Below are positions 29,447-36,025 of a stretch of 64,000 bases of DNA, piece after piece. The stretch's first letter is position 1. Each line of letters opens with the position of its first letter. The position numbers and the translations under genes are program-made. This stretch comes from Aurantibacter aestuarii (GTDB lineage Bacteria > Bacteroidota > Bacteroidia > Flavobacteriales > Flavobacteriaceae), in contig NZ_PXOQ01000007.1 in NCBI RefSeq assembly GCF_003008425.1, positions 456,419-520,418 of the forward strand, given 5' to 3'. The notes beneath the pieces were generated by a model. That model was not told the origin of the DNA, did no database searches, and was given only the letters and a program-made list of their open reading frames with translations.

Positions 29447-31162
<1,716 letters not shown>

Positions 31163-31260: not shown

Positions 31261-31280
31261 GTGCAATGTTTTTGCGTACT
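31261..31280. promoter_or_regulatory. Conserved dyad motif, site 1 (GTGCAATGTTTTTGCGTACT), upstream of rtcB
   Basis: One of three near-identical GCAAT-RTTTTT-GCGTA sites; about 110 bp upstream of the rtcB start. Confidence 0.55.
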
Positions 31281-31373
31281 GAATTTTTTATTTAAAAATT
31301 GTGTTTAATTACATCTGAAACAAGCTTATAATAATGTAAACACTTTGCGAGAATTACTACGTAAGCGATTGAT

Positions 31374-31444
31374 GCGGTATCCTTTTGTTTTTTTGCAAAA
31401 GATTTAGCGGAAAGCGTAACCCAAACTTTTGTTTGGGTTACGCC
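31374..31444. repeat. ~70-nt repeated element, copy A (GCGGTATCCTTTT...CAAAAGATTTAGCGGAAAGCGT + 13-bp hairpin)
   Basis: Shares GCGGYATCCTTTTT ... CAAAAAGATATAGCGGA ... GTAACGCC with copies at 41510 and 47120. It also serves as the terminator hairpin after the SPFH gene. Confidence 0.45.
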
Positions 31445-32867: not shown

Positions 32868-33001
32868 GCCATTTATTGTGTGACGCACAAGGGATCTATT
32901 TTTTAAAGTTGATCTTCTTTCCTAAAGTTGGATTTTGAATCCATTTCAATTGCTGTAACCGAAATACAGTGCGTTTGCCAATTTCGCCACAAACCGAAAA
33001 C

Positions 33002-33072
33002 TCGGTTTGGTAGGACTCGAACCTACAAATTGATCTATTGCTTAACCAGACTTAGCTACTTCAAGTTAATGA
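33002..33072 (-). pseudogene. tRNA 3'-half-like fragment A (T-arm plus 3' acceptor strand, no matching 5' half)
   Basis: Reverse complement GTAGGTTCGAGTCCTAC-CAAACCG-A is a canonical T-arm and acceptor 3' strand, but no complementary 5' acceptor strand lies within 100 nt. The adjacent hairpin CAAACCGAGTTTTCGGTTTG folds back on it. Confidence 0.45.
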
Positions 33073-33132
33073 AGGCAGGATTCGAACCTGCGTACATAGA
33101 ATTGATTATTATTTGGCTAATAACCGTAGCCT
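33068..33132 (-). pseudogene. tRNA 3'-half-like fragment B
   Basis: Reverse complement ...GCAGGTTCGAATCCTGC-CTTCATT-A has no 5' acceptor partner. A 64-nt mini-structure closed by GAAGGC/GCCTTC lacks a D-arm. Confidence 0.4.
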
Positions 33133-33223
33133 TCAAGTCAAGTTGAACATAAAAACGTAATACAAACTGTGACGGTTTATGCAATGGTGTTATATTGAAA
33201 CACCTAACAAGACCTGCTTGATG

Positions 33224-33306
33224 TGGAAGTAGTAGGACTCGAACCTACAAGCTTAAAAAAGACCAGATTTACAGTCTGGCGAGCCAACCAATTGCTCAAT
33301 ACTTCC
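33224..33306 (-). tRNA. tRNA-Tyr (anticodon GTA), type II with long variable arm
   Basis: Reverse complement GGAAGTATTGAGCAATTGGTTGGCTCGCCAGACTGTAAATCTGG...GTAGGTTCGAGTCCTACTACTTCC; 7-bp acceptor stem, anticodon loop CTGTAAA. Confidence 0.8.
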
Positions 33307-33316
33307 ATTTAATTTG

Positions 33317-33389
33317 TCTGAGAAGCAGGACTCGAACCTACAACCTCTCGCATCCAAAGCGAGCAAACATCCAATCGTTATCTTCCCAG
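33317..33389 (-). tRNA. tRNA-Pro-like (anticodon TGG), C1:G72 start, A37
   Basis: Reverse complement CTGGGAAGATAACGATTGGATGTTTGCTCGCTTTGGATGCGAGAGGTTGTAGGTTCGAGTCCTGCTTCTCAGA. Acceptor stem 7 bp with one G-U, anticodon stem CTCGC/GCGAG, loop TTTGGAT. The D-stem has only 3 bp and position 37 is A rather than G, so treat with caution. Confidence 0.55.
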
Positions 33390-33503
33390 TTTTATGTTAA
33401 TGAACTTTTTTTAACTCCACTAGTGTTCTTAACTAGTGGAGTGACTACCATTGTTTAAATTAAAAAGACTTCTTTCTAATTACTTTACAAATATTTTACT
33501 CTT

Positions 33504-33523
33504 TTGCGCAATATTTTTGCGTA
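33504..33523. promoter_or_regulatory. Conserved dyad motif, site 2 (TTGCGCAATATTTTTGCGTA), upstream of the tRNA cluster and downstream of the TPR/prfH operon
   Basis: Same GCAAT-RTTTTT-GCGTA core as sites 1 and 3; about 115 bp upstream of the tRNA-Pro 5' end. Confidence 0.5.
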
Positions 33524-33544
33524 GTGTAATTTATTTTGAAAAAA

Positions 33545-34090
33545 TTATTTCTTTTTCTTATTCCACTTATTCTTAGGATTCTTTTTTTTACACTTTTTAG
33601 AAGCGTTTGCCTTAATTTTAGCTTTAACTCTAGATATTTCAGAATCTATGAAACTTGTAAAATCATTGTTATAAGCAACTTGTTTGGCAGTTTTAAAAGA
33701 TTTCAACGCTTTTTTGTAATGTTGCTTTTGTTCTAGTAACTGATCATTTAAAACCCAAATTTCGGATTTACTTAAGCCTTTTACCGTAAATGCAAATTCT
33801 ATTAATTGTTGCGCTTCTATAAAATCTTCGTTCCAAAGTAACACTTGAATATAGCTGCTGTAGACTTTATGAAAATCTAACTTAATGGATAGTACTTCGG
33901 CGTAATACTGCTTTGCTTTTTCGTAATCTCCAAATTGTTCTGCTTGTAACTTTCCCATTAAAAACAGTGCATGTATATTATCTTCTTGATAAGACAATGC
34001 GTAGTTTAAATTCTCTACGGTTTCTTCTAAATCGTACGGATAAGCATCTAATGCTTTCAGTACGTAGGTGTTTAGTATGTTGGTTTCCAC
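33545..34090 (-). CDS. TPR-like helical protein with lysine-rich C-terminal tail; GTG start translationally coupled to prfH
   Basis: 181 aa with TPR-like helices. Its GTG start lies 2 nt after the prfH TAA stop, and it ends in the K-rich tail KAKIKANASKKCKKKNPKNKWNKKKK. Confidence 0.6.
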   Translation of the reverse strand: METNILNTYVLKALDAYPYDLEETVENLNYALSYQEDNIHALFLMGKLQAEQFGDYEKAKQYYAEVLSIKLDFHKVYSSYIQVLLWNEDFIEAQQLIEFAFTVKGLSKSEIWVLNDQLLEQKQHYKKALKSFKTAKQVAYNNDFTSFIDSEISRVKAKIKANASKKCKKKNPKNKWNKKKK

Positions 34091-34092
34091 GA

Positions 34093-34806
34093 TTATTTTA
34101 ATTTTAGTTGCTTTTGCAATTCAGTTTTTAGTTTTCCACGTTCTTTTTTGAACGTTTTGTCTTTTTTCTGAATTTTAAAATCCGAGCCTTTAAATACTTT
34201 TGTTGGCTGACCTCTTTTTATATTTAAGTGGTTTTCCCATTGATTTTTAATGCTCGACTTTAAGCGCTTTGTTTGTGTTTGATTGACTTTTTCAATCAAC
34301 CTAATTTTCGCTAATTTTTTGTTTTGATGTTGAGATCTGCTATCCATTACCAACACTTGCGTATTGGTTGGTTTATGCGTTGCTCTAATTGCAGAACTTA
34401 CTTTGTTTACATGTTGTCCGCCTGGACCAGAACTTCTTGTGGCTTGATATAAAATGTCTTTATCTGCTATATCTGAGCCGTATATTTGCTCAATTTCATA
34501 AATACCTATAAACCAGTTTTTACGTTTGTGTTTTGGTCTATATGCAGATACGCCAATCCATTGAATTGTTCCTAGCCACTTGCTTAAAAATGTGGTTAAA
34601 TTAGTTCCTGAAATTTGCACAGTTGCCGATTGTAATGTGCCATTTTCTACGCCTGTTTCGCGCTGCAAAATGCTGTATTCAATAGTTTTTAATTTTGCGG
34701 CTTCTAAAAATAATTTTAGAACTTGAGCTACAACCCAACAGCATTCTGCAGGTCCGCGACCAGATGTTATTTGTATTATTTTAGTTTTTGTTAATGACTT
34801 TGCCAT
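34093..34806 (-). CDS. prfH: Peptide chain release factor H homologue (PrfH; RF2-like, lacks domain 1) with extra K-rich tail
   Basis: GGQ motif RSSGPGGQHVNKVSSAIRATH. The N-terminal domain (GRGPAECCWVV..., WLGTIQWIGVSAYRPKHKRKNWFIGI) follows E. coli PrfH, recalled from memory: [34 protein letters not shown]. There is an added ~25-aa lysine-rich C-terminus. Confidence 0.85.
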   Translation of the reverse strand: MAKSLTKTKIIQITSGRGPAECCWVVAQVLKLFLEAAKLKTIEYSILQRETGVENGTLQSATVQISGTNLTTFLSKWLGTIQWIGVSAYRPKHKRKNWFIGIYEIEQIYGSDIADKDILYQATRSSGPGGQHVNKVSSAIRATHKPTNTQVLVMDSRSQHQNKKLAKIRLIEKVNQTQTKRLKSSIKNQWENHLNIKRGQPTKVFKGSDFKIQKKDKTFKKERGKLKTELQKQLKLK

Positions 34807-35138
34807 AATATTTTATCTTCTAAAAGCTCTAGTAAAAGCTGGTGTTTCAAACGTTTTAAAAGTGCTTTTGGTTTTTTATTACAACCACAAACCTCTGTAA
34901 TTTTAGTTTTGTATTTTAAATTACATGTTGCTCTAGAGGTTATCTAAAAACAAGTTTGCTGTTATGTTAACGATTCCAAGAAACGCTTCTAATTAGGAAT
35001 CAAGGTTTAAATGAATTTGATATAATTCATGATTGATTTTATTTAAAATGAAGCGTGACATTTAGTCTAAACGCAACATGGGTTGTTTTTACTACTGTTT
35101 AGGAATGTGTTTAGCAGAGTTGCTAAGGTTGAAAACAA

Positions 35139-35176
35139 AAAATCCGAAACAGTTTTTTAATTGCTTCGGATTTTTC
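35139..35176. terminator. Bidirectional intrinsic terminator (AAAATCCGAA-N16-TTCGGATTTT)
   Basis: 10-bp perfect stem flanked by A/T runs on both sides; most likely terminates the minus-strand 201-aa gene. Confidence 0.55.
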
Positions 35177-35367
35177 ATTTGTTTATGAAAGTGGTATTAA
35201 CTAAAATACGCTCGAAGCACCGCAGAAGGAATACGTCCTTTTGGGAAATCTGGATATGCTATAGAAATTATCATACTTCGAGTTTTTATTATTAATTTTT
35301 TCTTTGGAAATTTTTATTTCCGCTGGGCAAAGATTTGTTTTTATTTTTGAGTTATCAAAATTTATTT

Positions 35368-36006: not shown

Positions 36007-36025
36007 TACGCAATGTTTTTGCGTA
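36007..36025. promoter_or_regulatory. Conserved dyad motif, site 3 (TACGCAATGTTTTTGCGTA), perfect 7-bp inverted repeat
   Basis: TACGCAA-N5-TTGCGTA centred in the 35974-36066 divergent intergenic region. It overlaps a TTG-N18-TATTTTAG promoter-like arrangement facing the WYL gene. Confidence 0.6.

Follow-up and report, generated by a model that had tools for sequence, protein, structure and literature searches.

The present analysis concerns a window of 64,000 nt from Aurantibacter aestuarii (contig NZ_PXOQ01000007.1), in which two neighboring minus strand genes at positions 33545-34806 encode a homologue of the release factor-like protein PrfH and a TPR protein ending in a polylysine tail, referred to here as TPR-polyK. 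This pair had been singled out in an original prediction made from the sequence. A genome scan with the PrfH protein yielded 80 related loci from the Flavobacteriaceae and Marinilabiliaceae, with PrfH identities of 56-74%; the open reading frames (ORFs) of these loci were clustered and their tRNAs were predicted by ARAGORN, and together with the window they constitute the set of 81 loci considered throughout. Within this set, prfH and TPR-polyK form a genuine conserved module. In the window, the pair is flanked by a WYL regulator gene on one side and, on the other, by a unit consisting of tRNA-Pro, tRNA-Tyr, a YrlA-like RNA, a Band-7 gene, and a gene for an RtcB ligase (Table 1). Two types of RtcB are distinguished: RtcB_A, which is associated with Band-7 and WYL genes and is the type encoded in the window, and RtcB_B, which is located directly upstream of prfH in most relatives.

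The first gene of the pair indeed encodes a PrfH homologue, as had been proposed for this GGQ protein (motif SSGPGGQHVNK). On the NCBIfam model TIGR03072 release_prfH (IPR017509), it scores 229.2 bits against a cutoff of 166.65 and covers model positions 3-200 of 200. Its residues 10-210 align with E. coli PrfH (7sa4_8; E 3e-45) over the whole length of the latter protein, and its residues 8-231 align with C. gingivalis PrfH (CgPrfH; 9mor_A; E 1e-72), including the C-terminal tail, as the alignment continues through residues 211-231 (KIQKKDKTFKKERGKLKTELQ in the window protein vs KSTYVEKSYKKERAEAKREIK in 9mor_A). The basic tail is encoded at approximately 34096-34191, and the C-terminal 32 residues have a net charge of +9. 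From the same alignment, N55 can be read as the equivalent of CgPrfH N50. Because the match to release factor 2 (RF2) begins at RF2 residue ~109-131, the N-terminal, GTPase-interacting release factor (RF) domain 1 must be absent; the description of that domain as codon-reading in the original prediction was imprecise. The tailed PrfH proteins have recently been defined by Tian et al. (bioRxiv 2025, Sci Adv 2026, PMC12829566) as the PrfH-CT subfamily, with lengths of 225-250 aa, a basic C-terminal tail, and an occurrence mostly among the Flavobacteriia. The window protein has the corresponding length, the tail, and the N50 equivalent, and judged by these sequence characteristics it is a member of this published subfamily. 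It departs from the PrfH loci of most relatives in having no RtcB gene directly upstream, as the sole RtcB gene of the 64 kb is found 3 kb downstream. The likeness of its lysine-rich tail to that of ArfB, another element of the original prediction, finds support in experiments on the homologous CgPrfH, whose tail was demonstrated on E. coli ribosomes to become anchored in the mRNA channel when this is empty, as in non-stop complexes (PMC12829566; PDB 9MOR/9MQ4). In addition, CgPrfH has an rRNA-recognition domain that handles ribosomes cut after A1493, and the protein alone is active in vitro on both damaged and non-stop complexes (PMC12829566).

The second gene of the pair follows almost immediately. 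The minus strand junction reads ...AAA TAA TC GTG GAA ACC, such that the prfH stop codon is separated by 2 nt from the GTG start codon of TPR-polyK, just as had been predicted. Homologues of TPR-polyK start with ATG, and the window N-terminus (METNILNTY) matches residue by residue the METNLLNNY of the homologue at locus L001. Since the N-terminus aligns with ATG-initiated homologues, the GTG start is supported and a spurious start site could be ruled out. Matches to the Pfam TPR families are borderline (TPR_19, 25.0 bits with a cutoff of 25; TPR_8, 24.0 bits with a cutoff of 25.7). The AlphaFold (AF2) model is confident, with a predicted local distance difference test score (pLDDT) of 87.7, and consists of 8 paired helices that make up four TPR hairpins, together with a long helix at residues 142-169 and a disordered tail. 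Foldseek ranks consensus TPR proteins and the TPR domain of OGT highest (template modeling score, TM, 0.72; E 6e-6), and the protein exhibits the tandem 34-residue repeats and right-handed superhelix by which TPR proteins are recognized. The poly-Lys/Asn tail of the original prediction is likewise present: the last 28 residues (RVKAKIKANASKKCKKKNPKNKWNKKKK, encoded at approximately 33548-33631) include 14 K and 4 N and carry a net charge of +15. The TPR domain itself is acidic, with a net charge of -9 and an isoelectric point (pI) of 4.8. Very similar values are obtained from the related loci, for which the median charge of the TPR domain is -7 and the median tail has 14 K and a charge of +14 over 25 residues.

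Conservation of the TPR gene beside prfH, upon which the original prediction depended, is evident throughout the related loci. A TPR homologue is found directly 3' of prfH in 76 of the 81 loci, window included, while the remaining five comprise one contig end and four true losses; counting informative related loci only, the figure is 76 of 79. For 68 of these 76 loci, the prfH stop and the TPR start are spaced by -13 to +11 nt, and every one of the TPR homologues in the related loci has a K-rich tail. In pairwise comparisons, the ratio of nonsynonymous to synonymous substitution rates (dN/dS) reaches 0.10 for the whole TPR gene (domain, 0.084; tail, 0.25; clade lacking an adjacent RtcB, 0.12), compared to 0.15 for prfH (0.20 within that same clade). 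Together, the conserved position and the dN/dS values rule out a chance adjacency of the TPR ORF to prfH. A reverse look-up starting from TPR homologues gave the same arrangement, as 3/3 were located directly after a gene encoding an RF-1 domain, which was itself preceded by an RtcB gene. TPR-polyK is accordingly a real and strongly constrained gene that is kept immediately 3' of prfH, often overlapping it. When its family profile was searched against 1.8 billion representatives, 151 representatives (50%-identity) were obtained at E<=1e-30, nearly all of which are stand-alone proteins of 160-195 aa; neither NCBIfam nor Pfam was found to contain a specific family for the TPR protein. One representative of 330 aa (P0332) is an in-frame PrfH-TPR fusion, in which a PrfH body ending in ...LERGNP, devoid of the C-terminal tail, continues into the TPR protein at approximately residue 23 of the latter and retains its K-tail. 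This protein could have arisen as a natural fusion or through a deletion.

Table 1. Features of the island in the A. aestuarii window, with the prfH-TPR pair first
Feature	Position	Strand	Basis or remark
prfH, PrfH-CT subfamily, 237 aa	34093..34806	-	TIGR03072, RF-1 domain (Pfam), PDB alignments
TPR-polyK gene, 181 aa, GTG start	33545..34090	-	Pfam TPR, AlphaFold, Foldseek
RtcB_A ligase, 569 aa, N-terminal DUF6331, basic C-terminus	29447..31156	-	PF01139 E 1.4e-34, PF19856
SPFH/Band-7 protein, 366 aa	31451..32551	-	PF01145 E 1.4e-28
Structured non-coding RNA upstream of Band-7	32929..33125	-	Rfam YrlA (weak), alignment A3, RNAalifold
tRNA-Tyr(GTA), array type	33223..33306	-	ARAGORN; Rfam tRNA 57.7 bits
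tRNA-Pro(TGG), array type, C1-G72, unusual D arm	33316..33389	-	ARAGORN; Rfam tRNA 27.9 bits, threshold 29
ORF201, 201 aa	35368..35973	-	no family match; in relatives travels with RtcB_A
HTH-WYL-WCX regulator fused to PhyH, 573 aa	36067..37788	+ (divergent)	Pfam WYL, WCX, PhyH; PADLOC WYL models
Operator-like palindrome, copy 1	36009..36023	.	divergent region WYL-PhyH / ORF201
Operator-like palindrome, copy 2, TACGCAAAAATATTGCGCAA	33507..33521	.	starts 24 nt after TPR stop; 117 nt before tRNA-Pro
Operator-like palindrome, copy 3, 1 mismatch	31262..31276	.	105 nt upstream of RtcB start
Terminator-like hairpin + U-run	35133..35178	-	-19.6 kcal/mol, z-score -5.8

The pair had also been described as uncoupled from rtcB, which holds true insofar as the PrfH-adjacent type of RtcB is missing from the window, whereas a catalytically intact RtcB_A is encoded in the same orientation, 2.4 kb past the end of the TPR gene. 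The description is therefore misleading, because the pair sits inside a repair island containing RtcB, Band-7, and tRNA-like RNA. In the translation of RtcB_A, the catalytic motifs DACPAG, GDGNHF, HHGSRG, and PHGAGR are all intact, and its last 30 residues carry a net charge of +8. The protein reaches 569 aa because DUF6331 (residues 3-97) is in frame at its N-terminus; RtcB_A of most relatives is ~460-470 aa, and in at least one relative (L082), DUF6331 is encoded by a separate small gene beside RtcB_A. With only 49.8 bits on TIGR03073 release_rtcB (cutoff 271.8), the window protein does not belong to the RtcB2 family, and the RtcB_A type as a whole scores 50-57 bits, while the RtcB_B of the relatives is closer at 142-148 bits, yet still below the cutoff. 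By tblastn across the loci, RtcB_B is 27-34% identical to the RtcB of the window. A sequence search of the PDB did not tell RtcB_A and RtcB_B apart.

Among the relatives, the full island consists of a WYL gene and, in the opposite orientation, RtcB_A, (RlaP nucleotidyltransferases), c4, RtcB_B, (nucleotidyltransferase c3), PrfH, TPR, (exonuclease, phosphoesterase), a tRNA array, an RNaseH-like gene, non-coding RNAs (ncRNAs), and Band-7. The c3 product is a weakly Pol-beta-like nucleotidyltransferase (NTase), whereas the c4 product is highly charged and matches no family; similarly, no specific NCBIfam or Pfam family was found for c4, c24, or ORF201. RtcB_A travels with the WYL gene and Band-7 across the related loci, and a Band-7 protein of 65-74% identity is found in 18 loci of the 80-locus set. 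A reduced island is encoded by the window and 12 sister loci (L001, L003, L004, L006-L010, L012, L013, L016, and L020). All 13 are devoid of RtcB_B and of a long tRNA array. Band-7 and RtcB_A follow directly, and the window additionally lacks c3 and c4. A tblastn search of the 64-kb window for the adjacent RtcB, c3, c4, the exonuclease c5, the RNaseH-like c9, and others detected only the one RtcB. Judging from these sequence comparisons, the cognate-type ligase adjoining prfH has been lost in the clade of the window, and the reduced variant is common to at least 13 species.

Several observations were also made on the flanks of the island. The WYL protein of the window has a C-terminal PhyH (2-oxoglutarate/Fe(II) dioxygenase) domain, and this long form is present in 13 loci including the window; other loci encode a WYL-WCX protein of 334-341 aa without PhyH. 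PADLOC assigned only the WYL regulator to one of its models and found no defence-system family for PrfH, TPR, RtcB, Band-7, or ORF201. At loci L083-L085, strain-specific genes for SIR2 plus Piwi (prokaryotic Argonaute, pAgo), AbiEii, and CBASS SMODS plus E2 are located at 8.3-11.3 kb, beyond the Band-7 end. Since different strains have different defence systems at this position, the island evidently borders a variable defence hot spot. Lastly, a near-threshold match to Rfam Flavo-1 (40.2 bits, threshold 42) occurs at 31355-31425 on the plus strand, between the Band-7 stop and the operator region of RtcB and opposite to the genes.

The island is rich in RNA features as well. Downstream of prfH-TPR and in the same orientation, 22 of the 81 loci contain an array of 8-19 different tRNAs, mostly 12-19 (array loci L002, L011, L014, L015, L017-L019, L021, L023-L025, L031, L034, L035, L043, L044, L049, L067, L070, L076, and L080). 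These arrays are found downstream of TPR at ~9.5-13.5 kb in each locus, a WYL-type operator copy is located ahead of them, and their tRNAs look canonical (40-72 bits, Rfam tRNA). The tRNA-Pro of the window is homologous to the array tRNA-Pro of the relatives, with compensatory changes in the acceptor stem, and its tRNA-Tyr is near-identical to their array tRNA-Tyr. As both belong to the same families as those of the arrays, the window can be viewed as containing a two-gene mini-array.

Next to these tRNAs, nearly all Band-7 loci examined contain a structured ncRNA module at a distance of 415-610 nt ahead of the Band-7 gene, and 17 of these loci were aligned (A3). Its first part is a circularly permuted YrlA-like domain with an anticodon-like stem, a T-arm, a closed acceptor hairpin, and a D-arm, while in the second part, another T-arm and a hairpin precede a D-arm and an anticodon-like arm. 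RNAalifold predicted 53 pairs from the 17 loci, 32 of which are compensatory. In the structure composed of the named elements, compensatory changes occur in 32 of 45 pairs and 98.8% of cells are paired, compared to ~40% with slid partners, and none of 500 shuffles reaches this value. The permuted domain that is typical of YrlA is therefore present, whereas the score on Rfam YrlA (RF02553) is 32.6 bits, or 36 bits for L023 and L043, and thus remains below the gathering threshold of 69. No TROVE/Ro60 gene was detected among the annotated ORFs at 29.4-37.8 kb or among the Pfam-scanned conserved clusters of the relatives; the ncRNA instead neighbors the Band-7 gene in place of Ro60/Rsr. It is probably related to the "b7a-tRNA"/YrlA elements of Burroughs & Aravind 2016.

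The relatives also encode a GOLLD-like RNA of 800-950 nt, which is located between the tRNA array/RNaseH-like gene and the Band-7 RNA module and is preceded by the same operator. The copy at L014:15713-16660 scores 131.9 bits on Rfam GOLLD (threshold 150, E 1.5e-34), and 11 further loci (L011, L017, L024, L019, L018, L007, L009, L025, and L083-L085) were recovered by nhmmer at E 1e-147 to 1e-190. The window has neither this RNA nor a long tRNA array. GOLLD is known to occur beside tRNA arrays, and its position within a PrfH/RtcB/Band-7 island behind a WYL-type operator may provide a lead to its function.

A further feature of the island is a recurrent palindrome, TACGCAAAA-N-ATTGCGTA, which was searched for with the pattern CGCAA-N5-TTGCG and no more than 1 mismatch. 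The 64-kb window contains exactly 3 copies compared to 1.25 expected by chance, and these bracket the prfH-TPR pair and are embedded in repeated promoter-like regions of 38-86 nt; copy 2, for example, lies within an 86-nt repeat (33458-33543) that recurs ahead of the RtcB gene. The set of 81 loci gives 119 matches, compared to 9-20 in shuffles. The sites in the relatives are found in the WYL-divergent region, after TPR/before the tRNA arrays, and before the GOLLD-like RNA, the Band-7 RNA module, RtcB_A, and the RlaP genes. The position of copy 1 is occupied in nearly all related loci having a WYL gene, and none of the related loci without a WYL gene contains the palindrome. This distribution suggests that the palindrome is an operator bound by the WYL regulator. 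Between ORF201 and prfH, the window contains a terminator-like hairpin, which is ~190 nt from the end of ORF201 and 330 nt from the start of prfH. The gap between these two genes is filled in sister loci by the c4 gene (229 aa, highly charged). Scans for sigma-70 promoters, terminators, and the Bacteroidetes -7 motif did not exceed the counts expected by chance, and no usable promoter could be assigned to prfH.

Based upon these features, we consider the locus to be a conserved PrfH-CT/TPR-polyK module of a Bacteroidota rescue-and-repair island, in which the TPR protein would serve as an adaptor, the units would be switched by the WYL regulator, and the remaining RtcB would perform the ligation. 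We assign this interpretation as a whole a probability of approximately 60%. By extension from CgPrfH, PrfH-CT would read 16S rRNA nicked after A1493, position its GGQ motif, and free the peptide; alternatively, its basic C-terminal helix would enter the empty mRNA channel for a non-stop rescue like that of ArfB. In experiments on homologues, the cut 16S rRNA is subsequently sealed by RtcB once the 30S subunit is free. PrfH and TPR-polyK would presumably be made together and act together. The disordered lysine tail of TPR-polyK, given its +15 charge, most likely binds rRNA or the ribosome, while a basic peptide, for example the tail of PrfH-CT or the basic C-terminus of RtcB, is the most likely occupant of the acidic TPR groove. 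TPR-polyK may thus be an adaptor that retains the rescue factor, and subsequently the ligase, at the damaged subunit. A single WYL-type regulator would switch on the units of the island together, and the remaining RtcB_A would carry out the ligation step.

A number of points weigh against this interpretation. Firstly, the contact of TPR-polyK with PrfH, RtcB, or the ribosome is a prediction from sequence features, and CgPrfH worked in vitro without a TPR protein (PMC12829566). Secondly, four relatives keep prfH after losing the TPR gene, and the more distant members of the TPR family have no K-tail. Thirdly, the remaining RtcB_A is only 27-30% identical to the PrfH-adjacent RtcB_B, so that its capacity for 16S rRNA repair is merely putative, and an RtcB of the cognate type could be encoded elsewhere in the genome, outside the 64-kb window. 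Finally, because the hairpin intervenes and no full operator is found within 330 nt upstream of prfH, WYL control of prfH-TPR is not established in the window.

A more far-reaching version of the same idea would regard TPR-polyK as a new ribosome-binding rescue cofactor and the whole island as one WYL-controlled "emergency kit", comprising PrfH-CT, TPR-polyK, 1-2 RtcB, RlaP NTases, Band-7 with its YrlA-like RNA, spare tRNAs, and in some cases GOLLD, with the Band-7-associated RtcB having replaced RtcB2 in the clade of the window. We put this forward tentatively and regard it as rather unlikely.

It is also conceivable, though unlikely, that the pair is truly uncoupled from repair, having lost its ligase and surviving as an ArfB-like non-stop rescue system, with the RtcB, Band-7, and RNA genes forming an independent system that merely shares the island. 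No remnants of the adjacent RtcB of the cognate type, of the NTase, or of c4 are present in the window, the cognate RtcB is equally missing from the 12 sister loci, and PrfH-CT is able to rescue intact non-stop ribosomes alone (PMC12829566). A separate transcription unit is also suggested by the terminator-like hairpin and by the absence of an operator ahead of prfH. However, the pair is situated between the WYL/RtcB_A end and the Band-7 end in both island layouts, one operator copy begins 24 nt past the end of the TPR gene, and at L009, L010, and L012, no element upstream of prfH is closer to it than the WYL-divergent operator. Furthermore, the residues recognizing damaged rRNA are kept under purifying selection.

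Somewhat less probable still is a role for the TPR protein as a guard or chaperone of the PrfH tail, in which its acidic domain would bind the basic helix of PrfH-CT and prevent the hydrolase from attacking normal or vacant ribosomes before it encounters a stalled one, making the TPR protein a negative or fidelity factor and not a ribosome adaptor. The charges are opposite (-9 for the TPR domain, with a family median of -7, vs +9 for the PrfH tail), the conserved tight junction suggests 1:1 co-expression, and the TPR gene goes with tailed PrfH proteins of ~230 aa across the related loci. This scenario would nonetheless leave the strongly conserved +14 lysine tail of the TPR protein without a role, and CgPrfH alone exhibited no harmful promiscuity in published assays (PMC12829566). 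As for the notion that TPR-polyK serves the downstream RNAs (tRNA array, GOLLD-like, and YrlA-like) as an RNA chaperone or ribonucleoprotein scaffold instead of PrfH, we judge it highly improbable: polylysine is a generic RNA binder and a large tRNA array immediately follows the TPR gene in 22 of 81 loci, as do two tRNAs and a structured RNA in the window, yet Aquimarina and the Marinilabiliaceae keep PrfH-TPR without array, Band-7, or WYL operator, and the invariant neighbor is prfH, with an overlapping junction.

Among the Flavobacteriia and Marinilabiliaceae, PrfH-CT is nearly always accompanied by a strongly constrained and putatively co-expressed TPR-polyK protein. To our knowledge, the biochemistry and structures of PrfH-CT have all been performed with the hydrolase alone, and TPR-polyK is the obvious component to add in release and repair assays. 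The clade with PrfH-TPR and no adjacent RtcB offers a natural experiment as to whether the pair needs a dedicated ligase. The wider island brings the rescue of ribosomes, the ligation of RNA, arrays of spare tRNAs, a YrlA-like RNA, and, in the relatives, a GOLLD-like RNA under one putative operator, providing a testable regulatory handle on several RNAs. The island context is thus richer than had been appreciated in the original prediction, and the partner protein is directly testable.

When compared with known systems, it is evident that the present one is mostly of published kinds, as both PrfH-CT and an RFH(PrfH)-RtcB system with a TPR accessory have been described. The claim that a dedicated TPR partner was undescribed does not stand: the TPR gene already appears as an accessory of the RFH-RtcB system in section 2.4 and Fig. 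4G-I of Burroughs & Aravind (IJMS 2019, PMC6514570), and the tailed subfamily was published in 2025/2026. The same section proposes the TPR protein as a scaffold by analogy with Rqc1 and speculates about ArfB-like charged tails for other accessory proteins of the system (PMC6514570). The TPR-prfH association is the same as the one seen here, and the islands of the relatives similarly include an NTase (c3) and the charged c4. In contrast, the main text of that paper includes neither the polylysine tail nor the overlapping junction, and it likewise does not describe the tRNA arrays, the WYL operator, or a prfH that has lost its adjacent RtcB.

Other portions of the island have precedents too. 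An association of RtcB with Band-7 and a tRNA-like RNA ("b7a-tRNA") is attributed to Burroughs & Aravind 2016 in bioRxiv 10.1101/312249. As outlined in that source, the b7a-tRNA and Rsr-YrlA systems share with the window a Band-7 gene beside RtcB, a tRNA-like RNA upstream, and the permuted YrlA topology, whereas the window differs from Rsr-YrlA systems in having no Ro60/Rsr, an RNA far under the YrlA threshold, and a second tRNA-like unit. The combined island may already have been drawn in Burroughs & Aravind 2016 (NAR) or in the 2019 supplement. Long tRNA arrays that are co-regulated with rtcB have been described in cyanobacteria (PMC8421152).

The closest parallels to the pair itself are found among the rescue factors. 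ArfB/ICT1 similarly combines a GGQ hydrolase with a basic C-terminal helix that senses the empty mRNA channel, although ArfB has no domain derived from codon recognition and the ArfB match of the window protein is 38.8 bits with a cutoff of 100; the two are therefore alike in mechanism but do not belong to one family. CgPrfH is of the same length class (231 aa vs 237 aa in the window) and shares the GGQ motif, the tail, and the N50 equivalent, and both hosts belong to the class Flavobacteriia, the main home of PrfH-CT. The window prfH has no RtcB before it; the TPR gene is nowhere mentioned in the PrfH-CT paper (PMC12829566). The rtcB2-prfH system of E. coli encodes a homologous PrfH (Tian et al., PNAS 2022, PMC9304027; PDB 7SA4). 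There, PrfH is tailless and the operon consists of two genes without a TPR gene (PMC9304027), whereas the window has no adjacent RtcB2-like gene and a different RtcB type 3 kb away. The logic of the E. coli system, i.e. peptide release on ribosomes cut after A1493 followed by RtcB ligation, presumably carries over by analogy to the system of the window.

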